Shown: positions 753 to 64,000, numbered from the stretch's first letter. The stretch is 64,000 nt of DNA from an uncultured bacterium (GCA_964482725.1 CAYZYT010000001.1:186061-250060); one strand, 5' to 3'. Translations and numbers: made by a program. The notes: generated by a model from the sequence alone, not told the origin.

Positions 753-1175
753 TCACAGCTTTAACTTTCCATCTTTGCCATACACCTTAAACGTTCCCTC
801 TTGTTTTCCGTCCTTATAAAACGAATGACTCCTTAGCTGTCCATCTCCATAATAGGTCTTAAAGACCCCTTCTAGTTTTCCATCCCTGTAAGACTCCTCT
901 AAAACTAATTGCCCGTTTTCATGATAGGTCTTAAACGGTCCCTCTCGCTTCCCGCTCTTGAAGGCCCCCTCTTTTCTTAACTGCCCACTGTCGTAATACA
1001 CCTTAAACGCTCCCTCGAGCTTTCCGTCTCTGAAGGACTTCTCTGATTTCAGCTTTCCGTTTGCGTAATACTCTCTGAGAAGCTCCTCTCCCCACACGAT
1101 AGGACTCCCTATCAACCCTGAGAAAAGCGCAACTCCGATGAGACCGCGCATAAAAACACCCGCTTTAATATTCAT
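753..1175 (-). CDS. Secreted MORN-repeat protein (repeated YxxGxLxxEgxFKdGKxeG units).
   Basis: N-terminal signal peptide. At least 5 consecutive MORN-like repeats are visible in the translation. Confidence 0.6.
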   Translation of the reverse strand: MNIKAGVFMRGLIGVALFSGLIGSPIVWGEELLREYYANGKLKSEKSFRDGKLEGAFKVYYDSGQLRKEGAFKSGKREGPFKTYHENGQLVLEESYRDGKLEGVFKTYYGDGQLRSHSFYKDGKQEGTFKVYGKDGKLKL

Positions 1176-1486
1176 TTCCGTAGCCCCTCTTCAAAAATAC
1201 CTCGTTAAAATTGAATCGTGATAATTATACCCTTGCTTGAAGGAATTTGGCTAGGCGACTCTTTGCGCAGGCAACCCTTGAGCCTCTTCAAATAAAAACT
1301 CGAAAGTGCCCACAAGGGTATGGGACGAATCAAAAAACAAAAGAGCCACCAGCATCAACTGCGAGTGGCTCTCCGTATGACAAGGGGTACAGACATCGGA
1401 CGGGGCACTCCAAAAGCCCCACCGATGCAGTACCCATTCACACAAAAAAAGCCCTCTCCATTTCTGAAGAAGGCTTTTCGTGAATG

Positions 1487-1503
1487 GGTAGCGGGGGCAG
1501 GAT
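1487..1503. repeat. 17-bp exact direct duplicate (GGTAGCGGGGGCAGGAT) of the 3' end of the downstream tRNA-fMet gene. Reads as an att-like remnant.
   Basis: The identical 17-mer occurs at 1729..1745 inside the tRNA in the same orientation. Confidence 0.6.
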
Positions 1504-1625
1504 CGTGAGCGTAGACGGCTATCCTTATGTCGTCACGCGATCGCACTTGTGCATGGGCACAAGTGTTGAACCGAGCAGGATTTGGCGCCTTCCGCTTCGC
1601 TGCAGGTCGGCTACCCGCCCTATAA

Positions 1626-1648
1626 AAGCAACATCAGTTGCTTTTTTG
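1626..1648 (+). terminator. Rho-independent terminator-like hairpin: AAGCAAC-atcag-GTTGCTT followed by TTTTTTG.
   Basis: 7-bp stem followed by a T6 run on the plus strand. Confidence 0.4.
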
Positions 1649-1690
1649 TACAGGGCTCCCTTCAAATCCTGCCTCGCCCATGCACAAAAA

Positions 1691-1719
1691 ACCCGCCAAG
1701 GAATAAATCCCTGGCGGGT
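1691..1719 (-). terminator. Hairpin CCCGCCAAGG..CCTGGCGGG with a T-run on the minus strand, immediately 3' of tRNA-fMet.
   Basis: Read on the minus strand: AAACCCGCCAGGGATTTATTCCTTGGCGGGTTTTTTG. Confidence 0.5.
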
Positions 1720-1727
1720 TTCTTAAT

Positions 1728-1804
<77 letters not shown>

Positions 1805-2090
1805 ACGGTAATTCTAAAACTTGTCCGCGGGGCTAGCTTTGCTTCGCAGAATTGCCCCGCGACGACGAACATAAGACGGTACTGATTGCGGTATTGTATC
1901 AGCATTTCTTCAGGAATCAATCTTTCCCTTTTTTGTCCTTAAAACATACGCTCCCACCCCGGGCAGGAGGACTTCCCGACCATGGTATTTTTAATCTTGA
2001 GTTTTGGCCCGATTAGCCTAGAATCTTGGCTCTTTGTTGAGAATTTGATCCGAATCACACGTTATCATTTCACATTTAAAGGAGCCCCCC

Positions 2091-3044
2091 ATGTACCGAG
2101 AACAGATCAAAGTATTGGATTGCACGATCCGCGACGGCGGCCTGATGAATAACCATGATTTCGACGACCGCTTCGTCCGCGCCATTTACAAGGCGGTTTC
2201 TGAGGCCGGCATCGACTATATGGAGATCGGCTACAAGAACTCCAGGAAGCTTTTCCCGGGGGAAAAATACGGCGCCTGGAAATTCTGCTCTGACGAGGAT
2301 ATCCGGAAGGTCACGGAAGGGATCCCCTCCAAGACCAAGATCTCGGTCATGGTGGACGTGGACCGCGTGGATCTTGACGATATCAAGCCCAAAAAGGAAA
2401 GCCCCGTGACGATGATCCGCACGGCGTGCTATGTCAAAGACGTGGATAAAGCGATCTACCTCGCCAACCACTTCGCGGACAAAGGTTACGAGACCGCGGT
2501 AAACCTCATGGCGATCTCCAAAGTGCTCGAGGTGGAACTGACCGAATGTCTCCAGCAGCTTGAAAAGGAATGCAAATGCAACGTGGTGTATCTGGTCGAC
2601 TCGAACGGCTCGCTTTATCAGGAAACCGTGGAATACCTGATCAAGAAAGCCAAGAGCATCATCAAGACCAAGGAAGTCGGGATCCACGCGCATAACAATC
2701 AGCAGCTGGCCTTCGGCAACACGATCGAAGCCATCATCCATAACGCGAACTATCTGGACAGCACGATCTTCGGTATGGGACGCGCGGCCGGAAATTGCCC
2801 GACGGAACTGCTGCTGGGATTCCTGAAGAATCCCAAATTCGATATCCGTCCGATCCTGGACGTGATCTCCAAGGAAATGATCCCCCTGAGTAAAAAAGTC
2901 GAGTGGGGCTACGTGATCCCGTACGCCATCACCGGGATCCTGGATGAGCATCCCAAGTCCGCCCTGGAACTCCGCGAAAGCGACAAGAAAGATAATTACC
3001 GCGAATTTTATGACAGTTTCGCGGGGAGTTCCGAGGTCGAATAA
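2091..3044 (+). CDS. DRE-TIM metallolyase / HMGL-like aldolase family protein (pyruvate carboxyltransferase domain).
   Basis: Motifs LDCTIRDGG, GIHAHNN..A.GN and G.GRAAGNCPTE match HMG-CoA-lyase-like aldolases. It is co-directional and adjacent to eda. Confidence 0.6.
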   Translation: MYREQIKVLDCTIRDGGLMNNHDFDDRFVRAIYKAVSEAGIDYMEIGYKNSRKLFPGEKYGAWKFCSDEDIRKVTEGIPSKTKISVMVDVDRVDLDDIKPKKESPVTMIRTACYVKDVDKAIYLANHFADKGYETAVNLMAISKVLEVELTECLQQLEKECKCNVVYLVDSNGSLYQETVEYLIKKAKSIIKTKEVGIHAHNNQQLAFGNTIEAIIHNANYLDSTIFGMGRAAGNCPTELLLGFLKNPKFDIRPILDVISKEMIPLSKKVEWGYVIPYAITGILDEHPKSALELRESDKKDNYREFYDSFAGSSEVE

Positions 3045-3771: not shown

Positions 3772-5787
3772 TCAGCATTTCTTTCGTTTCGGTCGTGCGG
3801 CTTTTTTGAGGATGCTTTCTTTGGGATGTTCCCCTTCGATCCGGCGGATCTCGTCGCGATAACGGGCCGCCTTGTCGAACTCGAGAGCCCGGGCGCAAGC
3901 TTCCATGCGTGTTTTAAGGAACGCGAGGTAGTTCTTGGATTCGTATTCTTTCCCGGATTCATGGACCACGTCATGGACGAATTCCTCGGCTTTTTTCCAT
4001 TTTTCGATCCCGTCCTTGATCTCTTTTTGGATCGAGACCGGCGTGATATGGTGCGCGGTATTGTAATCCCCCTGGATCTTGCGGCGGCGCAAGGTCTCGT
4101 CGATCGCGCGTTTCATGGAATCCGTCACTTTATCGCCATACATGATGACCTTGCCGTTGATGTGCCGAGCCGCCCGGCCCGCGATCTGGATAAGCGAGAC
4201 GTCGCTCCGGAGAAAACCTTCCTTGTCCGCATCGAGCACGATCACCAGGGACACCTCCGGCAGATCCAGGCCTTCACGCAGGAGATTTACGCCGATCACA
4301 CAGTCGTATTTTTTGAGACGGAAATCGCGGAGGATCTCGACACGCTCGAACGCATCAAATTCGGAATGGATGTAATGGACCTTGATCCCGAGCTCCTTGA
4401 GATAGCGGCTCAGATCCTCGGCCATTTTCTTGGTAAGCGTCGTCACGATCGTCCGCTCGGATTTTTCCGCACGCGCCCGGACCTCGGCGATCAGATCATC
4501 GATCTGCCCTTCACTGGGGCGCACTTCGATCTCGGGATCCATGAGCCCCGTCGGGCGAATGACCTGCTCCGCCACGTCTTTCACGCGGCCCGTCTCGTAA
4601 GGCCCCGGCGTTGCAGAAACATAAAGACATTGGTTCAGTTTGGCTTCAAATTCCGGGAATCGAAGAGGCCGGTTATCCAGCGCGGACGGCAGCCGGAACC
4701 CATGATCGACCAGCACTTTCTTGCGCGAGGCGTCGCCGTTGAACATGCCGCGGATCTGCGGCACGCTTTGATGCGACTCGTCAATGATCACCAGAAAATC
4801 CTTGGGAAAATAGTCGATCAGCGTGTAAGGCGTAGAACCCGCAGCCCGGCCCGACAAATGGCGCGAATAATTCTCCACTCCGGAGCAATAGCCGACTTCT
4901 TTGAGCATCTCCAGATCATAGTAGGTGCGCGATTCCAGGCGCTTGGCCTCAAGATCCTGGCCCGCTTCGGTGAGCTTCTTGACATGCTCTTTCATTTCCG
5001 CTTCGATCGACACGATCGCGGCTTCGAGCCGCTCGCCCGGCGTCACAAAATGTTTGGCGGGATAGATCGCGAGCTTCTCGATCTCCCGGATCGCCGAAAG
5101 CTTCACGGGATCGAGAAGCGTGATCCGTTCAATGGATTCGGCTCCAAAATCTATTCGATACGGGTTCTGTCCATAAGAGGGTAAAAGGTCGATCCTGCCA
5201 CCCCTCACGCGAAACGTCCCGCGCCGAAGTTCCGTCTCCACTCTTTCATATTGAAGACTGATCAGACTTGAAAGGAATTTGTCCCGGTCCGCGATCTCGC
5301 CTTTCGTGATCGTGATGAGAAGTCCCTGCCAGTCCTCCGGGGCTCCGAGACCGTAGATACAGGAAACACTCGAGACGATGATGCAGTCTTTGCGCGAGAG
5401 GATGGAGCTGGTCGCGGAAAGGCGCAGGCGGTCGAGATCTTCATTGATCGATGCGTCTTTTTCAATGTAGGTGTCCGTGTGCGGGATATACGCTTCGGGC
5501 TGATAATAATCGTAATAGGACACGAAATATTCGACGGCATTTTCCGGGAAGAATTCCTTGAGCTCGGAATAAAGCTGTGCCGCGAGGGTTTTATTGTGCG
5601 AGATAAGAAGCGTGGGCTTGCCAAGTTGGGCGATCACATGCGCCATCGTGAACGTCTTGCCGGAACCGGTGACGCCTTTGAGGACCTGTTCTTTTTTCCC
5701 CGCCCGGAATCCTTCCACCAGCTGCCGGATCGCCTCGGGTTGATCGCCGCAGGGTTTCATAGAGGAAGTTAATTTAAAATCGCTCAT
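3772..5787 (-). CDS. uvrB: Excinuclease ABC subunit B.
   Basis: Full-length UvrB homology (GDQP, Walker A GVTGSGKT, helicase motifs, C-terminal UvrB/UvrC coiled coil). Start chosen at MSDFKL with AGAGG 7 nt upstream. The ORF-track start at 5802 is an extension. Confidence 0.9.
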   Translation of the reverse strand: MSDFKLTSSMKPCGDQPEAIRQLVEGFRAGKKEQVLKGVTGSGKTFTMAHVIAQLGKPTLLISHNKTLAAQLYSELKEFFPENAVEYFVSYYDYYQPEAYIPHTDTYIEKDASINEDLDRLRLSATSSILSRKDCIIVSSVSCIYGLGAPEDWQGLLITITKGEIADRDKFLSSLISLQYERVETELRRGTFRVRGGRIDLLPSYGQNPYRIDFGAESIERITLLDPVKLSAIREIEKLAIYPAKHFVTPGERLEAAIVSIEAEMKEHVKKLTEAGQDLEAKRLESRTYYDLEMLKEVGYCSGVENYSRHLSGRAAGSTPYTLIDYFPKDFLVIIDESHQSVPQIRGMFNGDASRKKVLVDHGFRLPSALDNRPLRFPEFEAKLNQCLYVSATPGPYETGRVKDVAEQVIRPTGLMDPEIEVRPSEGQIDDLIAEVRARAEKSERTIVTTLTKKMAEDLSRYLKELGIKVHYIHSEFDAFERVEILRDFRLKKYDCVIGVNLLREGLDLPEVSLVIVLDADKEGFLRSDVSLIQIAGRAARHINGKVIMYGDKVTDSMKRAIDETLRRRKIQGDYNTAHHITPVSIQKEIKDGIEKWKKAEEFVHDVVHESGKEYESKNYLAFLKTRMEACARALEFDKAARYRDEIRRIEGEHPKESILKKAARPKRKKC

Positions 5788-5797
5788 AAAACCTCTG

Positions 5798-5872
5798 GCC
5801 ACACGTCACAGGCCACATGCCACACGATGGTTTTTCGTGTGTCCTTGTAGCTTTGTGACATTCCTGTGACCT
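5798..5872. repeat. Structured element family F5 (CACATGCC.CACGA...TGTGTCCTTGT.GC.TTG), copy A, immediately upstream of the uvrB start.
   Basis: About 45 nt are alignable with copy B at 59806..59880, upstream of ispE. It contains an inverted repeat. Confidence 0.5.
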
Positions 5873-5874
5873 GT

Positions 5875-6765
5875 TCAATCGATCAAAAGAGAGAAATCGA
5901 CGGCTTTGACGGAATGGGTGAGAGACCCGACGGAGATAGTGTCCACCCCGGCGGCAGCGAACTTGCGGACATTCTCGAAGGTAATACCGCCCGAGGCTTC
6001 GAGGTTGACCCCGGGAGCTTCCTTGCGTACGATCTCCACCGCCCGCTTGGCTTCTTTAGGCGAAAAATTGTCGAGGAGAATAACCTTGGGACGCAACCCG
6101 ATCGCTTCCCAAAGCTCGCCGAGACTTCGCACTTCAATCTCGAAAGCGCCGGGATGGCGCCGGAGTTTTTTGAGGTCCCCGTGGATCCGGTGGTTCTCTT
6201 TGATAAAGATAAACTCATCAAGCCCCTGCCGGTGGTTCCGGCCGCCCCCCACCTGCACGGCCACCTTTTCCAGCTCACGCCAGATCGGGGTGGTCTTGCG
6301 GGTGTCCAGAATAAACGCCGGATATTTTTTGACACGGTTCACGAATTGACGCGTCTTGGTCGCGATCCCTGAAAGATGCCCGATAAAATTCACCATCGTC
6401 CGCTCGGTCTTGAGGATCGAGCGGATATTTCCTCGCATTTTAAAAACGATCTTCCCCGGTCGGAGCTTACCGCCGTTATGCACCCGGAATTCGAGCTTCA
6501 CTTGGGGGTCGACGATCTTAAAGATCTCCCGGACGAGACGCTCCCCGCAGAAAATGCCGTGTGCCTTGGCGATCACGCGGGCCGTTCCCCGAGCATGCGG
6601 GGGGATCAGCAAATTGGAAGTAACGTCTCCCTGCCCGATGTCCTCATGAAGCGCCTCCTTGAGAAAGCCAAGCGTCCGGCGCGACACCGGCAACGGATGG
6701 CCCGGGAAACCGCCTTTAGAAACTGGCGAGTTGGCTGTGGTAGGATACGAGAAGTTTTTTGGCAT
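5875..6765 (-). CDS. nadC: Nicotinate-nucleotide (quinolinate) pyrophosphorylase.
   Basis: A NadC domain is recognisable across the C-terminal 280 aa. The Met start at 6765 overlaps the valS 3' end by about 50 nt. The upstream part of the ORF-track frame is not NadC-like, and a GTG/TTG start further downstream is possible. Confidence 0.7.
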   Translation of the reverse strand: MPKNFSYPTTANSPVSKGGFPGHPLPVSRRTLGFLKEALHEDIGQGDVTSNLLIPPHARGTARVIAKAHGIFCGERLVREIFKIVDPQVKLEFRVHNGGKLRPGKIVFKMRGNIRSILKTERTMVNFIGHLSGIATKTRQFVNRVKKYPAFILDTRKTTPIWRELEKVAVQVGGGRNHRQGLDEFIFIKENHRIHGDLKKLRRHPGAFEIEVRSLGELWEAIGLRPKVILLDNFSPKEAKRAVEIVRKEAPGVNLEASGGITFENVRKFAAAGVDTISVGSLTHSVKAVDFSLLID

Positions 6766-9577
6766 CGGCAAGTTTCTCTTTCTCTTTTTCCAGGATCTCT
6801 TTCGGAGCTCTTTCGGCGAACGACGGGTTCTCAACTTTTTTACGGATAGTCTCGATCCACTGCTCTGTTTCCAGGATCTTTTTCTGGAGACGTTTTCTCT
6901 CCTCTTCCGGGTCCAGAACTCCCTCGAGCAGGATAAAGGCATCAAAGGCTGCAAAGGAGTTGGCCGCCACGGCGCCCTTTTTCTCGAATTCACGCACACA
7001 AGAAAGTTCCGCGAGCCGTCCCAGCACTTTTACCTCACGCTCGAAAGCGCGCAGGGTCTCCAACGTTCCCTGCTCCTTGCAAACAACGACCGCTTTGAGT
7101 TTATCGGTCGGAGAGATCTTGTAGCGGACCCGGAGATCCCGGAGACCGATCACCGCTTCCTGCAAGAGCCCGATGGCTTTCTGAGCTTCCCCATCGTGGA
7201 ATTTCATTTCCTCTTCGTGCGGCCACGGCGCGAGCATGATGGATTCGGGCCATGGACCCGATCCAACCTGGCAGGTCGAATTAATCCGACCTGCCAGGTT
7301 GGATGGGTGGGCTTTTTGCTTAAAGGTCTGCCAGATCTCTTCGGTGATGAACGGCATAAAAGGATGCAGAAGCCTCAGCATCCGCTCACAGACAAAGAAT
7401 AGGACCTTCTGCGTCTGCAATTTGAGAGCGGCATCCTCCGACAGGACCATGGGTTTCGCGAGCTCGATATACCAATCGCAGAAATCATCCCAGACAAAGT
7501 GATAAAGCTCGGTCGCCGCCTGGGCAAGGCCGAATTGGGAAAGATGCTTTTCGATCATCGCGGCTTTTGCCTCAAGCTGTGACAGGATCCAGCGGCTCGG
7601 AAGCGACAACTTGATGTTTTTGAATTGCGCCGGATCCGTGGAGGCTTCCTGAAACCCTTCGAGCTGCATCAGGACGAACCGGCAGGCGTTCCAGACCTTG
7701 GTGGCAAAATTGCGCCCCATCTCGAACTTCTCCCGGGAAAGATAAACATCCTGCGCGGAAAGCATCACGAGGCTGTAGCGGAGGGCGTCGGCCCCCATCT
7801 CCTCGATCACTTCAAGCGGATCGATGGAATTCCCGAGCGACTTCGACATCTTCAGCCCGCTCGCCGCGCGCACCGTGCCATGGATATTAATTTGGGTAAA
7901 CGGGACCTCCCCCATGAATTCGAGCCCGGCCATGATCATGCGCGCCACCCAGAAAAAGATGATCTCTGGAGCGGTGACAAGCGCCGAGGTCGGATAGAAT
8001 TTCTTCAGATCCTCGGTTTTCGCGGGCCAACCCAGCGTCGAGAACGGCCAGAGCCAGGACGAGAACCAGGTGTCGAGAACGTCCTCGTCGCGTTTGATGT
8101 CCTTTGAACCGCAGTGGGGACATTGAGTGATATCTTCACGAGACACAATCGCTCCGTCAGACTGGAGACTAGAGACTGGAGACTGGCGCTTCTGGTCTGT
8201 GGTCTTTCCAGTTTGCGACTGCGCGCATTTTGCGCAGTACCAAACTGGAAGCCGATGCCCCCACCAGATCTGGCGCGAGATGCACCAATCGCGGATCCCG
8301 TGAAGCCAGTTCAGATAAACCTTGGTCCAGCGGTCCGGAAAGAAAACTGTTTTCCCCTGTTCGTGGGCCTTCAGCGCCTTCTCGGCCAAAGGCTGCATCT
8401 TCACGAACCACTGTTTGGAAAGATACGGCTCCACGACGGTGTCGCAGCGATAGCAATGGCCGACCGCGTGCAGATGCGAGTCGCGCCGGACAAAAAGCCC
8501 CTGCGCTTCCAGGTCCTGAAGGATCTTTTTACGCGCTTCAAACCGGTCCATGCCTTGATACGGTCCGCCGTGCTCGTTGATCTTCGCGTCCGGCGTCATC
8601 ACATTGATCTGCTCGAGATTGTGCCGGTGCCCCATCGCAAAGTCATTGGGATCATGCGCCGGCGTCACTTTCACAATGCCGGTCCCGAATTCGGGGTCCA
8701 CAAAATCATCCGCGATCACCGGGATCTCGCGGTTCACAAGCGGCAGCAGGACTTTCTTCCCGATCAGGTGTTTGTAGCGGGGGTCGGTCGGATGCACTGC
8801 GACCGCGGTATCGCCCAACATGGTTTCGGGACGGGTCGTCGCGACCACAACGTGGTCGATGCCGAGTTTGTCGAGTACAGGGACAGGTCCGCTTTTGCTT
8901 GCAGGACCTGTCCCTGTGACGATCGGATACTTGAGGTGATAAAGCCCACCTTGCATGTCCTTGTGGGCGGCCTCTTCATCGGAAAGCGCTGTCTGGCAAC
9001 GAGGACACCAATTGATGATGTAGTTCCCGCGATAGATCAGTCCACGCTCGTAAAGCGTGACGAACGCCTCGCGCACCGCTTTGGAAAGGCCTTCATCCAT
9101 GGTGAACCGCTCACGGGTCCAGTCGCAGGAAGCGCCGAGCCGGCGGAGCTGGCGCGTGATGGTCGAGCCGTGCTCGTGCTTCCATTTCCAGACTTCTTCG
9201 AGGAATTTTTCGCGGCCGACATCCCAGCGAGTCTTTTTTTCTTTGGCGAGCTTCTTCTCAACCACATTCTGCGTCGCGATCCCCGCGTGATCGACCCCCG
9301 GCACCCAGAGCGTGTCCCGGCCCTTCATGCGGTTCCACCGGATGAGAATATCCTGGATGGAACTGTTGAGCGCGTGGCCCATATGCAGGATGCCTGTGAC
9401 ATTGGGCGGAGGGATGACGATAACATAAGACTTGGGACTTGAGACTTGAGACTTGAGCTTCGGATCTCTGGGCTCTGGGCTCTGGTCACTCGTCGGTTTG
9501 AAGTAGCCCTTCGCTTCCCAGAGGGTGTACCACTTCGTCTCGACTTCTTTGGAGTTGTATTGTTTGTCCAATTCCAT
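6716..9577 (-). CDS. valS: Valyl-tRNA synthetase, carrying three in-frame repeat/palindrome insertions.
   Basis: Class I motifs (PPPNVTG.LHMGHA, KMSKS), a zinc knuckle and a C-terminal coiled coil. It is 953 aa, slightly longer than typical. Confidence 0.9.
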   Translation of the reverse strand: MELDKQYNSKEVETKWYTLWEAKGYFKPTSDQSPEPRDPKLKSQVSSPKSYVIVIPPPNVTGILHMGHALNSSIQDILIRWNRMKGRDTLWVPGVDHAGIATQNVVEKKLAKEKKTRWDVGREKFLEEVWKWKHEHGSTITRQLRRLGASCDWTRERFTMDEGLSKAVREAFVTLYERGLIYRGNYIINWCPRCQTALSDEEAAHKDMQGGLYHLKYPIVTGTGPASKSGPVPVLDKLGIDHVVVATTRPETMLGDTAVAVHPTDPRYKHLIGKKVLLPLVNREIPVIADDFVDPEFGTGIVKVTPAHDPNDFAMGHRHNLEQINVMTPDAKINEHGGPYQGMDRFEARKKILQDLEAQGLFVRRDSHLHAVGHCYRCDTVVEPYLSKQWFVKMQPLAEKALKAHEQGKTVFFPDRWTKVYLNWLHGIRDWCISRQIWWGHRLPVWYCAKCAQSQTGKTTDQKRQSPVSSLQSDGAIVSREDITQCPHCGSKDIKRDEDVLDTWFSSWLWPFSTLGWPAKTEDLKKFYPTSALVTAPEIIFFWVARMIMAGLEFMGEVPFTQINIHGTVRAASGLKMSKSLGNSIDPLEVIEEMGADALRYSLVMLSAQDVYLSREKFEMGRNFATKVWNACRFVLMQLEGFQEASTDPAQFKNIKLSLPSRWILSQLEAKAAMIEKHLSQFGLAQAATELYHFVWDDFCDWYIELAKPMVLSEDAALKLQTQKVLFFVCERMLRLLHPFMPFITEEIWQTFKQKAHPSNLAGRINSTCQVGSGPWPESIMLAPWPHEEEMKFHDGEAQKAIGLLQEAVIGLRDLRVRYKISPTDKLKAVVVCKEQGTLETLRAFEREVKVLGRLAELSCVREFEKKGAVAANSFAAFDAFILLEGVLDPEEERKRLQKKILETEQWIETIRKKVENPSFAERAPKEILEKEKEKLADAKKLLVSYHSQLASF
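7263..7302. repeat. 40-bp near-perfect palindrome (CCAACCTGGCAGGTCGAATT|AATCCGACCTGCCAGGTTGG, one mismatch) inside valS coding sequence, in-frame.
   Basis: The reverse complement of the second half equals the first half except at one position. It encodes an extra peptide (..SNLAGRINSTCQVG..) near the conserved SIMLAPWP region. Confidence 0.7.
8158..8248. repeat. Composite insertion in valS: heptamer tandem repeats (GAGACTR x4, TGGTCTG x2) plus an imperfect palindrome of about 41 bp (CCAGTTTGCGACTGCGCGCATTTTGCGCAGTACCAAACTGG).
   Basis: It sits between the two Cys pairs of the ValRS zinc knuckle and encodes QSQTGKTTDQKRQSPVSSLQSDG. It is homologous to the element at 9428..9490. Confidence 0.6.
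9428..9490. repeat. Heptamer tandem-repeat insertion near the valS N-terminus (GACTTGR x4 then CTCTGGG x3).
   Basis: Encodes SDQSPEPRDPKLKSQVSSPKS between FKP and the PPPNVTG/HIGH region. It is the same repeat type as 8158..8248. Confidence 0.6.
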
Positions 9578-9586
9578 AAATACCGG

Positions 9587-9657
9587 AAGGAGGAGGGAGG
9601 ATGGCGGAGGGCGTCAAACCAGGCTTGTCGCCATCCTCCCTCCGCCTTCCGCCATCC
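9587..9657. repeat. GGATGG/CCATCC-rich hairpin element, family F2, copy 1. A 12-bp stem GGGAGGATGGCG / CGCCATCCTCCC flanks a loop of about 22 nt.
   Basis: Lies between the valS start and the cimA stop. Related copies are at 16449 and 23999. Confidence 0.55.
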
Positions 9658-11216
9658 TATCCTTTGTGTAATTTATATTCGATCGCTTCGACGAGGGCTT
9701 TCCAGCTGGCTTCGATGATGTTTTCGTGGACACCGACCGTGGTCCAGGTTTTTTGTTTATCCTGGAATTCGATAAAGACGCGTACCTTCGCCGCCGTTCC
9801 GGCCTCGGAATTGACGACGCGCACTTTATAATCCGTCAGGTGGATCTCATCGATCACGGGATACGTTTTGGCGAGCGCTTTCCGCAGCGCGGAATCGAGC
9901 GCGTTGACCGGCCCGTCCCCGTCCGCCGATTCAAAATGTTCGACGCCCTGAGCCGTGACTTGCACGTCTGCGATCGAGCGTGGGCTTCCGGCGCCGATCT
10001 CTTCGGTGCGCACGGAAACCGCGCCGGGTTGGAAGAACGGCTTGTATTTACCGAGGACCCGCTGCACGAGAAGCTCAAAACTCGCTTCCGCAGCTTCAAA
10101 TTGATACCCTTCGTATTCCAGGCGCTGGATCTCGGCGAGGATCTTCTTGGCCTCAGAAGAATCTTTCTGGAATTTCATTTCAAGTTCCTCGGCCTTGATC
10201 ATGATATTGGTCTTCCCCCCGAGCTCGGAGACAAGATACCGGCGGTAATTCCCGAGAGCTTTGGGCTCCACGTGCTCGTAGGTCTTGGCGTTCTTTACCA
10301 TGGCGTTGATGTGCACGCCGCCTTTGTGCGCGAACGCGGAGCGGCCCGTGAACGGCTGATTATTGACCAGAGGCATATTGCAAACCTCGGCCACATAATG
10401 CGAGAGCTGGGTCAGCTCCTTCATTTTCTTTGCGGGAAAGCACGGAACCTTCATCTTGAACTGGAGGTCCGGGATGATGCTTGCAAGGTTCGTGTTCCCG
10501 CAGCGCTCGCCGTAACCGTTGATCGTTCCCTGCACGAGAACGCATCCTTCGCCCACCGCCTGGATGGAATTGGCGACCGCAAGCTCGGAATCATTATGAC
10601 AGTGGATGCCGAGCGGCGTTTTCACGGAGCGCTTTACCTTCTGGATCGCGTGACGCACTTCATGCGGCAGGCTTCCGCCATTCGTATCACAGAGTGAAAG
10701 ATTGTTGGCGCCCGCTTTCGCGGCCTGCTGAAGCGTTTTCAGCGCGTATTCGGGATTCGCCTTGAACCCGTCAAAAAAATGTTCGGCATCATAGATCACT
10801 TCGATCTTCCGGTCCTTGAGGTACGCGACCGTTTCATAGATCATCAGGAGATTTTCTTTGAGCGTCGTCCGGAACACTTCAGTCACGTGCATGTCCCAGG
10901 ATTTCCCGAACACCGTCACGACCTTGGTGCCGGCTTCGAGCAGCGCTTTGATCTGCGAGTCTTCTTTGACTTTCATGTGGGCGCGGCGCGTGGAGCCGAA
11001 TGCCGCGATCTTGGAGTGTTTGATCCCGGCCTTCTTGACCGCGAGGAAGAATTCCATATCCTTCGGATTCGAACCCGGCCATCCGCCTTCGATGTAATGG
11101 ACACCGAACTGATCGAGCCGCTTCGCGATCAGCACCTTATCGTGGGAGGACAGACTGATCCCCTCAGCTTGTGAGCCATCACGGAGTGTTGTGTCGTAGA
11201 AAAGAATCTTCTTCAT
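9657..11216 (-). CDS. cimA: (R)-citramalate synthase (CimA clade of the LeuA/HMGL family).
   Basis: Motifs LRDGSQ, IEGGWPGSNPKD and HxH, plus a C-terminal LeuA-dimer regulatory domain. Start chosen at MKKILFYDTT. The ORF track extends to 11237. Confidence 0.7.
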   Translation of the reverse strand: MKKILFYDTTLRDGSQAEGISLSSHDKVLIAKRLDQFGVHYIEGGWPGSNPKDMEFFLAVKKAGIKHSKIAAFGSTRRAHMKVKEDSQIKALLEAGTKVVTVFGKSWDMHVTEVFRTTLKENLLMIYETVAYLKDRKIEVIYDAEHFFDGFKANPEYALKTLQQAAKAGANNLSLCDTNGGSLPHEVRHAIQKVKRSVKTPLGIHCHNDSELAVANSIQAVGEGCVLVQGTINGYGERCGNTNLASIIPDLQFKMKVPCFPAKKMKELTQLSHYVAEVCNMPLVNNQPFTGRSAFAHKGGVHINAMVKNAKTYEHVEPKALGNYRRYLVSELGGKTNIMIKAEELEMKFQKDSSEAKKILAEIQRLEYEGYQFEAAEASFELLVQRVLGKYKPFFQPGAVSVRTEEIGAGSPRSIADVQVTAQGVEHFESADGDGPVNALDSALRKALAKTYPVIDEIHLTDYKVRVVNSEAGTAAKVRVFIEFQDKQKTWTTVGVHENIIEASWKALVEAIEYKLHKG

Positions 11217-23998: not shown

Positions 23999-24072
23999 CC
24001 GGATGGTGGATGGTGGATAATGCCCCTCAAAACAAAAAAACCGATCCGCCATCCGCCCTCCGCCATCCGACT
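23999..24072. repeat. Family F2 element, copy 3 (GGATGGTGGATGGTGG ... CCGCCATCCGCCCTCCGCCATCCG), in the msbA leader.
   Basis: Shares GGATGGCGGAGGGCG with copy 1. Confidence 0.5.
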
Positions 24073-59802: not shown

Positions 59803-59805
59803 TTA

Positions 59806-59880
59806 AAGACACAAAGCCACAAGGACACATGCCCCACGAGCATTTCTTTTGTGTCCTTGTGGCCTTGCAACTTTGTGAAC
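59806..59880. repeat. Family F5 element, copy B. A 14-bp perfect stem GCCACAAGGACACA / TGTGTCCTTGTGGC sits upstream of ispE.
   Basis: Alignable with 5798..5872 upstream of uvrB. Confidence 0.55.
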
Positions 59881-61475: not shown

Positions 61476-61484
61476 AAAAAATGC

Positions 61485-61544
61485 GTGTCAAAGTATCAAC
61501 GTTTCAACGCATCATGAAACTCTGATACTTTGATACCCTGACAC
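61485..61544. repeat. Family F3 element, copy Y. The palindrome is built from two inverted copies of GTGTCA(GGGTAT)CAAAGTATCA..GTTTCA.
   Basis: The reverse complement of the right arm, GTGTCAGGGTATCAAAGTATCAGAGTTTCA, matches 11247..11276 almost exactly. Confidence 0.55.
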
Positions 61545-62546
61545 TTACTTTATTTGCAGCGCGGGATCGCCTGTCATATTAAGTTTCGACCGTTTTCCTT
61601 GTTTGTAAAGCTCAAACCCTCGGCGCGCGATCATGGCTGCGTTGTCGGTCGAAAGAACAAACGGCGGGAACCAGACCTTGATCCCCTTTGCTGCGCCGTC
61701 CCGCGTCAGTTTTTCGCGAAGATACGAATTCGCGCTCACGCCCCCGCCGACCACAATATCGGAAGCGCCTTTAAATTCGCAGGCATCAAGCGCCTTCTCG
61801 ACAAGCCACCCGATGGCAGCATGCTGAAAACTTGCGGCCATATCTTTTTGAGACAACGCGTCAGGGTTCGGCCTCCCGGTCTTCGGATCCTGATAATGAT
61901 AAAGCACGGCCGTTTTTACGCCACTAAAACTAAAGCTGAAGCGCCCCTCTTGTTTCGGTCTTGTGAATTGAAAAGCCCGCGGGTTTCCTTCTCGCGCCAG
62001 CTTATCCAGGATCGGCCCGCCGGGATAACTGAGCCCCATGATCTTCGCGACCTTGTCGTAGGCCTCGCCCACAGCGTCATCCACCGTCTCGCCCAGAATA
62101 TGGATCTTCCCTTTTTCGCAGAACGTGAGCATCGTGTGTCCGCCGGAAACCAAAAGACCGATGTAACGCTTGGGTTCCGGCGCCCCAAAAAAATTCGCCA
62201 CGAGATGAGCTTCCATATGATTTACGCCGACCAGCGGGATCTCGAGCTGATACGCGAGCGCCTTGGCGAACGCGACGCCGACAAGGAGTGAGCCCATGAG
62301 ACCGGGACCCTGGGTCACGGCAATGAGATCAAGGTCCTTGGCTTTGATCTTGGCTTCATGAAGCGCTTCCTCGAACACGCATTGGATCTGTTCCATGCAA
62401 TGCCGCGAGGCGATCTCGGGCACCACCCCGCCGAATTTCTTGTGCCGGAACAAACTGGAGGACACGACATTGGAAAGGATCGTATCTTTACCTTTTAGTA
62501 TCGAACACGACGTTTCGTCGCAGGAGGTTTCTATCCCGAGCGTCAA
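61545..62546 (-). CDS. tsaD: tRNA N6-adenosine threonylcarbamoyltransferase. The probable start is a TTG that gives MLTLGIETSCDETS. The ORF-track Met at 62618 is an extension.
   Basis: Kae1/TsaD motifs throughout. The canonical N-terminus begins at LLTLGIETSCDE. Confidence 0.8.
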   Translation of the reverse strand: MTLGIETSCDETSCSILKGKDTILSNVVSSSLFRHKKFGGVVPEIASRHCMEQIQCVFEEALHEAKIKAKDLDLIAVTQGPGLMGSLLVGVAFAKALAYQLEIPLVGVNHMEAHLVANFFGAPEPKRYIGLLVSGGHTMLTFCEKGKIHILGETVDDAVGEAYDKVAKIMGLSYPGGPILDKLAREGNPRAFQFTRPKQEGRFSFSFSGVKTAVLYHYQDPKTGRPNPDALSQKDMAASFQHAAIGWLVEKALDACEFKGASDIVVGGGVSANSYLREKLTRDGAAKGIKVWFPPFVLSTDNAAMIARRGFELYKQGKRSKLNMTGDPALQIK

Positions 62547-62626
62547 CAAAGCTGACGCTCGCGTGGAACGGCTAACGGTTAACGTTGAACGCTTTAGTTT
62601 TTTCGTTCCCCGTTCCACGTTACCCG

Positions 62627-64000
62627 TTACCCGTTAACGAGCTTCTGCATTAGAAGCTCGTTAACTATTTTTGGATTCGCTTTTCCGCCAGTTTCTTTCA
62701 TCACCGCGCCGACGAGAGCGCCGAGGGCCTTTTGTTTTCCGGCCTTGAATTCCGCGACCGCAGTCGGGTTCGCCGCGATGGATTTTTCGACCGCTTTTTC
62801 GATCAAGCCGGTGTCCGAAACCTGTGTCAGGCCTTTTTCTTTGACGATGCTATCAGCATCTTTCCCGGTCTCGAACATCATTCCAAGCACGTCCTTTGCG
62901 GTCTTCCCGGAGACGGTCCCGTTGTCGATCAGCTTGAGAAGTCCGGCAAAAGCTTTCGCCGTGACGAGGCAGTGTTCGATCCCAAGACCTTTACTGTTCA
63001 GGACCGCAAGCAGTTCAGTCAGGACCCAGTTGCTGGCAAGTTTTGCCAGGGACAGGTCCTCTTTTTTCAGGACCTGTCCCTGAGTGACAACCGCCTCAAA
63101 ATATTCCGCGAGTTTTTTATCTTCCACAAGCGTATACGCGTCATATTCAGAGAGAGCGAATTCCTTTATGAACCGCTTCGCGCGTTCGAGCGGAAGTTCG
63201 GGTAAAGTTTTTCTAATTTCCTCGACCACCTCACGGGACAAGGTGAACGGCACCAGATCCGGCTCCGGGAAATACCGGTAATCATGGGCTTCTTCCTTTG
63301 AGCGCATGGAAAAAGTCGTACCCTTAGTGTCATTCCAAAGCCGCGTCTCCTGCACGATCGTCTCCCCGGCTTCGCAGGCTTCGGTTTGCCGTTCGATCTC
63401 GTACTGGATCGCTTTCTGAACCATCTTGAAAGAATTCAGATTCTTGATCTCAACCTTGGTCCCGAGTTTTTCCTGGCCTACGGGTCGCACCGACACGTTC
63501 GCGTCGCAGCGGAGGCTTCCCTTTTCCATATCGCAGTCGCTTACCTCCACATATTGGAGGATCGCTTTGAGCGCGGTGAGGTAATCATAAGCTTCCTGCG
63601 GGCTGCGAAGGTCGGGCTCAGAGACGATCTCAAGAAGCGGAATACCGCCGCGGTTGTAATCCACCAGGCTTCCGTCCGTGATCCCTTCATGCAGAAGTTT
63701 CCCGGCATCTTCTTCCAGGTGCGCGCGCGTGATGCCGATCCTCTTGACGACGAACAACTCAGGGACAGGTCCTCTTTTTTCAGGACCTGTCCCTGTCTCG
63801 ATATCAAGCCACCCTTTCCCATTCACGGGCATGTCAAACTGCGAGATCTGGTAGGCCTTGGGAAGATCCGGATAAAAATAATTTTTCCGATCAAATTTGA
63901 GCCGCTCTGCCACTTTACAATTAAGAGCGAGCCCCACCCGAATCCCGAGTTTCAAGGCCGCCTCGTTTAAGACGGGCAACGACCCCGGCCAACCGAGACA
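62627..64000 (-). CDS. gatB: Asp/Glu-tRNA amidotransferase subunit B, partial. The N-terminus lies beyond the window end. It carries two identical in-frame 36-bp palindromic insertions.
   Basis: GatB homology starts at about residue 50 and continues in-frame through the last base of the window. Confidence 0.9.
   Translation of the reverse strand, partial: CLGWPGSLPVLNEAALKLGIRVGLALNCKVAERLKFDRKNYFYPDLPKAYQISQFDMPVNGKGWLDIETGTGPEKRGPVPELFVVKRIGITRAHLEEDAGKLLHEGITDGSLVDYNRGGIPLLEIVSEPDLRSPQEAYDYLTALKAILQYVEVSDCDMEKGSLRCDANVSVRPVGQEKLGTKVEIKNLNSFKMVQKAIQYEIERQTEACEAGETIVQETRLWNDTKGTTFSMRSKEEAHDYRYFPEPDLVPFTLSREVVEEIRKTLPELPLERAKRFIKEFALSEYDAYTLVEDKKLAEYFEAVVTQGQVLKKEDLSLAKLASNWVLTELLAVLNSKGLGIEHCLVTAKAFAGLLKLIDNGTVSGKTAKDVLGMMFETGKDADSIVKEKGLTQVSDTGLIEKAVEKSIAANPTAVAEFKAGKQKALGALVGAVMKETGGKANPKIVNELLMQKLVNG
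63047..63082. repeat. 36-bp perfect palindrome CAGGGACAGGTCCT-cttttttc-AGGACCTGTCCCTG inside gatB, in-frame. It encodes QGQVLKKEDLSL.
   Basis: 14-bp perfect arms. Identical to 63760..63795. Confidence 0.8.
63760..63795. repeat. Second identical 36-bp palindrome inside gatB, in a different frame. It encodes TGTGPEKRGPVP.
   Basis: Exact 36/36 match to 63047..63082. Confidence 0.8.

Follow-up and report, generated by a model that had tools for sequence, protein, structure and literature searches.

Palindromic elements of Rickettsia (RPE) were reportedly described by Ogata et al. in 2000 and 2002. Classic RPE-1 elements are about 100-150 bp long and carry a conserved peptide of 30-50 residues. 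REPINs, which form another kind of short palindromic repeat, are mobilised by RAYTs, as Bertels and Rainey are said to have found in 2011. REPs that lie within genes were catalogued in 2013 for the GTAG and the CGTC superfamilies, and the list includes tRNA synthetase genes as well as double insertions in one gene (Di Nocera et al., PMC3733652). The highest GTAG count was that of Opitutus terrae, a PVC bacterium with many intragenic REPs, and the short Rickettsia elements RPE-4 and RPE-6 are CGTC REPs (PMC3733652). RPE-1 and other intragenic small repeats have been reviewed, and SPRITE of pneumococcus, an example of a terminator-like mobile hairpin, is listed among the abbreviations of that review (PMC10969869). 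A preliminary description of the DNA studied here had held that palindromic repeats inserted in frame into essential genes would be new outside a Rickettsia-like lineage. This claim is not borne out, as such repeats had already been described in the 2013 catalogue. Since both the REPs inside genes and the RPEs of Rickettsia had been described before, the repeat family treated here, designated F1, is not a new kind of element; the family itself is new, and so is the phylum Omnitrophota as a place where intragenic palindromic repeats occur. A literature search on palindromic repeats or palindromic insertions in Omnitrophota yielded nothing for the phylum, and a search with the core sequence of F1 yielded unrelated primer matches only.

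The window, i.e., the whole stretch of 64,000 nucleotides that was analyzed, derives from an uncultured bacterium, which, judged from the relatives of its GatB and ValS proteins, is a member of the Omnitrophota; all close relatives with a named source belong to this phylum. What is known of this phylum comes almost exclusively from genomes that were assembled from metagenomes. The gatB product matches the full-length GatB protein P0001 (497 aa) with 100% identity; P0001 and its ValS counterpart P0121 are NCBI proteins from a contig of 356 kb. The gatB product contains the Pfam domains GatB_N and GatB_Yqey, and is matched by GatB proteins in the PDB with E values down to 3e-152. The 36-mer CAGGGACAGGTCCTCTTTTTTCAGGACCTGTCCCTG (+ strand) occurs twice within this ORF, in the same orientation and with 0 mismatches, exactly where the preliminary description had placed it, and no match appeared in 100 shuffled versions of the window with preserved dinucleotide composition. 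It had been called a perfect palindrome, but it consists of complementary arms of 14 bp and an asymmetric loop of 8 nt, CTTTTTTC, and the element therefore has an orientation. Translation of the minus strand bears out that the two copies are read in different frames and add the peptides that had been given for them, TGTGPEKRGPVP, i.e., (T)GTGPEKRGPVP, at site 1 and QGQVLKKEDLSL at site 2. Five of the six frames of the 36-mer are free of stop codons, and gatB uses exactly the two open frames of the sense strand. Classification as a CRISPR repeat was rejected, because there are only two copies, separated by 677 bp, and both lie inside the conserved gatB ORF.

The same family is represented a third time in the window, by a copy in valS that had been overlooked (Table 1). 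Its 13-nt arms are identical to those of the gatB copies, while its loop, GCTTTTGCTTGCA, has a length of 13 nt, and it is translated as TGTGPASKSGPVP, i.e., (T)GTGPASKSGPVP. At this site most ValS orthologues read GKSGP, and the protein encoded in the window is longer by nine residues. In addition to F1 and further repeat-derived insertions, valS carries a second palindromic element, F4, which the preliminary description had reported at 7263..7302; the palindrome is real, but slightly larger. F4 has the pattern ATCCRACC-N5-GGTYGGA, which is present twice, and it is translated as PSNLAGRINSTCQVGSG. Most ValS orthologues are devoid of it. In two of them (L160 and L161) F4 is found at the same codon site with perfect arms, and seven to eight stem positions differ from the window copy, each difference being matched on the opposite arm. 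Further copies were found in gatA of L158 and in an intergenic region of L046. In a comparison of five F4 copies, 8 of 22 stem pairs were changed on both sides and 98% of the cells were paired, a result equaled by none of 500 shuffles. The length of the ValS orthologues varies between 899 and 988 aa; they contain several indel hot spots, and the same peptide families recur in them. A further hairpin in valS, at 8206-8250, has one arm that is the conserved coding sequence for LPVWYCAKC, and the other arm is an inverted copy thereof.

Table 1. Positions of the genes and hairpins in the window and at three loci of other phyla with a Y1_Tnp gene.
Sequence	Feature	Position	Strand	Remarks
Window	gatB (Asp/Glu-tRNA amidotransferase subunit B)	62627..64000	-	5' end outside window; ORF and translation
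Window	F1 hairpin, gatB site 1	63760..63795	-	exact 36-mer; residues 109-120 of P0001; RNA hairpin -32.3 kcal/mol, z -6.45
Window	F1 hairpin, gatB site 2	63047..63082	-	exact 36-mer; residues 347-358 of P0001; RNA hairpin -31.3 kcal/mol, z -5.3
Window	valS (valine-tRNA ligase, 953 aa)	6716..9577	-	translation; 100% identical to P0121
Window	F1 hairpin in valS (third copy)	8878..8916	-	39 bp; inverted-repeat scan; RNA hairpin -33.7 kcal/mol, z -6.9
Window	F4 double palindrome, in frame in valS	7258..7307	-	25-nt arms, 92% complementary, no loop; RNA hairpin -45.2 kcal/mol, z -9.2
L070 (Tepidisphaeraceae)	Y1_Tnp gene	7238-7912		
L070 (Tepidisphaeraceae)	core hairpins	7157-7200, 7936-7981		
L080 (Lysinibacillus)	Y1_Tnp gene	1130-1888		
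L080 (Lysinibacillus)	core hairpins	1080-1121, 2153-2197		
L112 (Mageeibacillus)	Y1_Tnp gene	5806-6687		
L112 (Mageeibacillus)	core hairpin	5696-5741		

It is firmly established that the segments in gatB and valS were inserted in frame, are specific to the lineage, and belong to a dispersed family of hairpin repeats; they sit in tolerant loops and persist over species-level divergence. That they are insertions rather than ancestral sequence, as had been proposed, is borne out by an alignment of 45 orthologues, in which the base-state GatB proteins (480-481 aa) lack both inserts. In L157, one of the base-state orthologues, neither insert is present at the DNA level, and the solved structures agree; for example, GatB of Aquifex (3H0L_B) has gaps of 11 residues at site 1 and of 8 residues at site 2. 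Deletion of the 36 nt at site 1 leaves a loop of five residues, equal in length to that of short-form GatB. At gatB site 2 and at the F1 site of valS the net gain over base-state orthologues amounts to no more than 24 and 27 nt, respectively, and these two insertions are thus not clean blocks. The placement of the gatB inserts was checked on an AF2 model of the protein (mean pLDDT of 80), according to which insert 1 would form a loop between the strands 103-109 and 124-137, with a pLDDT below 50 at residues 114-117, and insert 2 would lie in the connection between the helices 335-347 and 353-376.

The orthologues show that the two sites in gatB are hot spots for indels throughout the Omnitrophota. 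In the set of the 120 closest GatB proteins, site 1 is expanded in about 34 and site 2 in nine, and about eight families of hairpin-type peptides were distinguished by eye at these sites. In one orthologue (L120) site 1 is occupied by a related hairpin, AAAGGGGGACAGGCTCCTTTTT...AAAAAGGTGCCTGTCCCCTTT, in another one (L159) by an insert of heptamer repeats, and site 2 of L158 is taken up by a perfect hairpin that is unrelated and resembles a terminator. The element at site 1 is identical at 36 of 36 positions, loop included, in L163 and L162, the gatB genes of which are 88% and 81% identical overall and 70% and 53% identical at four-fold degenerate sites, respectively. For an element that changes as fast as these sites do, the chance of such an identity would be 2e-6 for L163 and 9e-11 for L162. 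This comparison shows that the hairpin has been preserved better than neutral sites. The fate of the element at site 2 has been different: L120 (43% identity at four-fold sites) has a decayed copy at the same codon position, with 32 of 36 positions identical, in L163 the element is rearranged, and in L162 a 36-nt insertion is nested inside the loop.

The arms of F1 are CAGGGACAGGTCC and GGACCTGTCCCTG, the loop is variable in sequence and length, and the size of the element ranges from 32 to 50 bp. When one genome of each species (596 Gb) was searched for GGGACAGGTCC-N(6-24)-GGACCTGTCCC, at least 118 stretches in many phyla were detected, compared to fewer than one expected by chance, according to our own estimate for 22 specified bases, 19 gap lengths, and 596 Gb. 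With the 13-nt arms as query, 36 loci that carry the element, mostly in intergenic regions, were added from metagenomes. The Omnitrophota genome nzgw332 contains at least nine F1 copies in the parts that were examined; most of them are intergenic, often just 3' of a stop codon, three lie within giant ORFs, and they have short non-palindromic loops and the same CA...TG ends as the window copies. In-frame hairpins were also found inside the Pfam domain matches of additional conserved proteins, i.e., aconitase C (L121), ALAD/HemB (L138), MqnA/D (VitK2_biosynth, L139), the Glyco_transf_9 match of a family 9 heptosyltransferase (L152), and, from the genome scan, the DAO match of a GlpD-like FAD oxidoreductase (L066). 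A radical SAM protein (L154) has an in-frame copy outside of the matched Pfam stretch, and a DUF1016-SNase protein (L147) has one between its two domains. All three frames of the arms are used (GTGP/GPVP, QGQV/DLSL, and RDRS/TCP). At least four unrelated loci have the loop GCTTTGCT in common. At the metagenome loci the span from CAG to CTG is frequently not divisible by three; values of 34, 37, 38, and 41 nt occur. The notion of a family that inserts in frame, as put forward in the preliminary description, has therefore to be narrowed: F1 is dispersed and is found in frame in other conserved genes, but most of its relatives are intergenic, and thus F1 is not specifically an in-frame-inserting element. 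Two matches in Microvirga (L079 and L103) were rejected, as they represent a chance GST motif, GQVP...DLSL, in coding sequence. No F1 hairpin was present in 2.9 million viral contigs, and neither the window copies nor the metagenome copies revealed a target-site duplication or a conserved flank.

In other phyla, the 11-nt core GGGACAGGTCC forms the center of REPIN-like double palindromes, which are present in the stretches found in the genome scan. Each arm is a near-palindrome, GGGAC-NN-GTCC(C), with lineage-specific flanks, and the two arms are inverted relative to one another. At three loci the core hairpins directly adjoin a Y1_Tnp gene (L070, L080, and L112; Table 1). The proteins of L080 and L112 match PF01797 with E values of about 1e-14. 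For the proteins of L070 and L080 the best NCBIfam match is the REP-associated tyrosine transposase, with 62-65 bits and thus below the RayT cut-off of 80, and close relatives of these Y1 proteins have been named RayT by NCBI. A RAYT of Pelotomaculum, which belongs to the same clade and was selected by its protein and not by a hairpin, is flanked by repeats with the related core GGGGACGGTTCT. The RAYT-like ORFs next to the core hairpins were traced via weak tblastn matches of approximate TnpA (IS200) and RayT (E. coli) queries. No gene for a RAYT or another transposase was found in the window or in Omnitrophota-type DNA amounting to about 0.35 Mb. The best 120 RAYT relatives in a profile search contained no Omnitrophota proteins, but only proteins from Bacillaceae, Clostridia, and Phycisphaerae. 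From the pairing of hairpin and RAYT in other phyla we infer that F1 in the source genome may be mobilized in a RAYT-like manner.

The nearest known kind of element for F1 is the REP/REPIN, rather than RPE-1. Like REPs, which are 20-40 bp long, F1 elements are short stem-loops, and inverted doublets occur. In number and location F1 may resemble REPs, which are present in many dispersed copies and predominantly between genes: three copies, all intragenic, lie in the 64 kb of the window and at least nine in the examined parts of nzgw332, where, as at most metagenome loci, intergenic copies prevail, often near the 3' end of a gene. As with intragenic REPs, a minority of copies lies wholly inside ORFs and adds residues to proteins, tRNA synthetases included, and sometimes one gene is hit twice. 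The likeness to REPINs consists in the inverted doublets of palindromic units, with F4 as a clear double palindrome, and in the finding that, in other phyla, genes for RAYT-like Y1 transposases are flanked by the same core. There are also differences. In contrast to the REP superfamilies, the window and metagenome copies of F1 have no unpaired GTAG or CGTC tag, and only relatives in Bariatricus have GTAG; the loops vary in length and sequence; and all three window copies are intragenic. In contrast to REPINs, no RAYT was found at the Omnitrophota loci examined, and the RAYT-like proteins of other phyla score below the NCBIfam cut-off. The resemblance to RPEs that had been noted for the gatB copies holds insofar as palindromic repeats are inserted in frame into unrelated essential genes, are translated, are compatible with the protein fold, and have hit the same gene repeatedly (PMC10969869). 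It does not extend to RPE-1, because the window copies have only 36 and 39 bp and only the 13-nt arms are conserved; furthermore, the host belongs to the Omnitrophota and not to the Rickettsiales. The comparison with RPEs was made by description.

We regard it as probable that F1 is a REP/REPIN-type repeat that is dispersed in the Omnitrophota by RAYT-type spread, is tolerated in protein loops, and is subject to copy correction. In such a scenario a single-strand transposase (Y1/HUH) of the RAYT type would disperse F1 copies in trans, as in the case of REPINs, and some copies would land in protein-coding DNA such as gatB and valS. Survival inside a gene would require a length that keeps the frame, a frame without stop codons, and a surface loop or an inter-helix connection that accommodates 12-13 additional residues, while selection would remove copies that break the frame, bear stop codons, or disrupt the fold. 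The in-frame length of the intragenic copies is most simply explained as the outcome of this selection, and the surviving inserts would be translated as Gly/Pro-rich or charged loops. The complementarity of the arms would be kept by copy correction, i.e., by gene conversion from other copies or by hairpin-templated repair, and not owing to any benefit for GatB or ValS. Several observations count against this explanation. The loops of F1 differ in length and sequence from copy to copy, unlike those of a simple copy-paste element; the conservation above neutral level and the covariation would equally fit a selected function; and F1 has neither a tag nor a target-site duplication, its CAG-CTG spans are often not triplets, not all insertions are clean blocks, and no RAYT was found in the Omnitrophota DNA examined.

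The last but one of these observations leads to an alternative that we consider unlikely, namely that the hairpins are domesticated and have been selected as RNA or DNA structures in host genes, e.g., as sites of ribosome pausing, as sites for an RNase or for mRNA stability, or as sites of protein binding. Such a function would be in agreement with the complete identity of the site 1 element in two orthologues in which four-fold sites are only 53-70% identical, with the perfect pairing of F4 in three valS orthologues despite seven to eight changed stem positions, and with the very high stability of the hairpins (-31 to -45 kcal/mol, z values of -5 to -9). However, presence or absence varies even among close orthologues, unrelated hairpin families occupy the same sites, copies at site 2 decay, are rearranged, and take up nested insertions, and the same element is found in many unrelated genes as well as in intergenic regions. 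A scan of the window and 16 loci at the Rfam gathering thresholds detected only tRNAs and no family that includes the hairpins. Covariation of the same extent would also arise without any function, if one arm were corrected from the other or if copies were replaced by other copies. For the excess conservation and the compensatory changes, copy correction or replacement by a genome-specific master copy is therefore favored over selection for structure, given the variable presence among close orthologues, the unrelated hairpins at shared sites, and the decay and nesting at site 2. Improbable in our view is also a wider proposal of two parts, according to which the Omnitrophota hairpins are working parts, either mRNA elements that tune the translation or decay of gatB, valS, and housekeeping transcripts, or domesticated substrates of a RAYT-like enzyme that rewrites the loops, and the GGGAC-core hairpins from Bacillaceae to Planctomycetota constitute a third, untagged REP superfamily with a RAYT clade of its own. 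If such an enzyme repeatedly rewrote surface loops, this would account for the existence of hot spots, for nested insertions, and for the fact that all four half-sites of the valS palindrome have changed in concert.

Another view dispenses with mobility altogether: the hairpins would have been made in place when, in the course of replication or repair, template switching or snap-back synthesis produced inverted copies of nearby sequence, and their arms would have been kept matched thereafter. The arms of F4, which are perfectly complementary within each orthologue and different between orthologues, would fit to such an origin, as would the inverted copy of the LPVWYCAKC coding arm in valS, the hypervariable loops with their nested insertions, and the net gains that are smaller than the element. 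We nevertheless think that an origin in place is doubtful, because identical 13-nt arms are present twice in gatB, in valS, and at dozens of unrelated loci and genomes, the loop GCTTTGCT is shared by unrelated loci, and the core is tied to a transposase gene in other phyla. Two identical 36-mers in one gene, 713 bp apart, could moreover be taken for an internal duplication, for ancestral GatB sequence, or for an assembly artefact. The flanks of the two copies are unrelated, however, and there is a third copy in valS, inserts with the same peptides are present in relatives that were assembled independently (ENA, JGI, and NCBI), and base-state orthologues and the GatB proteins in the PDB are devoid of the inserts. 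All three possibilities were rejected on the basis of the orthologue and family data and have become extremely improbable. The REP/REPIN-type reading is the one that is preferred here.

With these results, palindromic repeats within the reading frames of essential genes, hitherto known from Rickettsia and a few bacteria rich in REPs, are documented for the Omnitrophota as well. The phenomenon appears to be common in this phylum, with about a third of the close GatB orthologues having a hairpin-derived loop at one site. The orthologues represent a natural data set on how proteins gain new surface loops, and, as orthologous copies show compensatory changes, they have a bearing on the question whether intragenic hairpins are tolerated or actively maintained. 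There are also practical aspects: the inserts inflate protein lengths and create apparent low-complexity loops, and they can mislead alignments, phylogenies, and structure predictions for marker genes of Omnitrophota. With the shared GGGAC core, which in several phyla adjoins RAYT-like genes, a testable recognition motif is available for a little-studied clade of transposases.

With MITEs and SPRITE, F1 shares that it is a small, non-autonomous repeat with inverted ends. No parent IS or long element bounded by F1 arms was found in about 1.4 Mb of examined DNA, and in contrast to MITEs there is no target-site duplication. A role as intrinsic terminator was rejected for the window copies, as the sense strand has no T run after the hairpins; the bases that follow them are AGTTGTTCG, GCAAAACTT, and TACTCGAC. 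The intergenic F1 copies, in contrast, look like terminator-type hairpins, and some of them are followed by a T run, for example in the genome of an uncultured bacterium assembled from a metagenome (L093), in which seven T residues follow the F1 copy.

Hairpins built on the 11-nt core GGGACAGGTCC of the F1 arms (F1 is the 36-39 bp hairpin repeat present in frame in gatB and valS of the window) were detected by the genome scan in at least 118 stretches from widely separated phyla (L001-L118; e.g. L018, L033, L013, L023, L019, and L034). The hosts are Bacillaceae, Lachnospiraceae, Thermotogaceae, Cloacimonadota, Planctomycetota, Acidobacteriota, and one archaeal bin, and the flanks and the inner loop of the hairpins are specific to each lineage. 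Each single arm contains a near-palindrome of its own, and because of this feature the elements resemble REPINs. RAYT-like genes, encoding relatives of the REP-associated tyrosine (Y1) transposases, have such hairpins as their immediate neighbours or are flanked by a related core (see the table). These hairpins and genes, taken together, may represent a REP superfamily that lacks the tag and has a RAYT clade of its own. No paper containing the core sequence was found in the literature.

Not all pattern matches are repeat elements, as is exemplified by the matches in Microvirga (L079 1058-1095, L103 5659-5696), which are ordinary glutathione S-transferase coding sequence (motif GQVP...DLSL) that fits the pattern by coincidence. 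In the Omnitrophota MAG nzgw332, a giant ORF with a recurring hairpin covers an entire 8-kb locus. The copies have an identical loop and similar right flanks, and therefore they represent an internal protein repeat at this locus rather than separate insertions. The valS-type double palindrome F4 was also found outside of valS, once within a gene and once close to an F1 hairpin.

Coordinates of hairpins, short arrays, and associated genes
Feature	Locus	Position (nt)	Host or setting
RAYT-like Y1 transposase gene, adjoining GGGAC-core hairpins	L070	7157-7981	Tepidisphaeraceae
RAYT-like Y1 transposase gene, adjoining GGGAC-core hairpins	L080	1080-2197	Lysinibacillus
RAYT-like Y1 transposase gene, adjoining GGGAC-core hairpins	L112	5696-6687	Mageeibacillus
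RAYT-like relative, flanked by related core GGGGACGGTTCT	L164	2280-3600	Pelotomaculum
F4 double palindrome (CCAACC-N5-GGTTGG x2)	L158	3766-3805	in frame in gatA, another Omnitrophota genome
F4 double palindrome (CCAACC-N5-GGTTGG x2)	L046	2310-2353	intergenic, about 50 bp from F1 hairpin
Hairpin copy	L077	1944-1974	giant ORF, nzgw332
Hairpin copies	L082	2598-2628, 6918-6948	giant ORF, nzgw332
Hairpin with 19-nt arms	window	8206-8250	valS
7-/8-nt unit arrays	window	8159-8186, 9428-9457, 9466-9485	valS
7-/8-nt unit arrays	window	9585-9657, 24001-24069, 59805-59867, 61484-61545, 62604-62636	
Decayed F1-like hairpin	L163	about 9850-9900	in frame, 3' part of gatA
Extra genes	L158	5401-5997	between gatA and gatB
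Extra genes	L159	4115-5957	between gatA and gatB
Extra genes	L157	4788-5956	between gatA and gatB

The net gain in length at two F1 sites is smaller than the element itself, namely, 27 nt for the 39-nt element in valS (8878-8916) compared to L160/L161, and 24 nt for the 36-nt element at gatB site 2 (63047-63082) compared to L157/L159. The native sequences of the insert-free orthologues in these comparisons (AAGAGCGGTCCT; AAAGAGGGC) are similar to the stretch of F1 where the loop passes into the right arm, and this similarity could reflect a microhomology-guided insertion, a partial replacement, or a coincidence. At gatB site 2 of the relative L162 (about 358-1977), the loop of the F1 hairpin carries an additional insertion of 36 nt, composed of two small hairpins. 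The translation of this region is QGQVL-PPPLAGSRPEAG-KKEDLSL. Therefore, the loop is itself targeted or is a mutational hot spot. The GatB protein P0244, which shares a 90%-identity cluster with the GatB of the window (P0001) and P0243, has no insert at site 1, which is of the long form that is typically found in another clade, but nevertheless has an F1-type site 2. These mixed states suggest that Omnitrophota populations have recombined within gatB.

A decayed F1-like hairpin (CAGGGGCAGGTCC...GGATCTGTCCCTA) is present near the end of gatA in L163, the closest relative, and probably also just past the right edge of the window. The interval between gatA and gatB contains extra genes in some relatives, including a T5orf172/MUG113 (GIY-YIG-like) gene and a DUF2971 gene, while the synteny is otherwise conserved.

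A further hairpin in valS of the window looks like an inverted duplication that was formed in place, and not like an imported element. One arm is the conserved coding sequence of a zinc knuckle (LPVWYCAKC), and the other is its inverted copy, which encodes the extra residues AQSQTGK. In addition, short arrays with three to four copies of a unit of 7 or 8 nt are numerous in the window. Some of them lie in frame within valS, and others form intergenic hairpins by pairing with the array of complementary sequence. The product of (ACAGACC)n, the peptide TDHRLQTT, is found again in the GatB and ValS proteins of further Omnitrophota.
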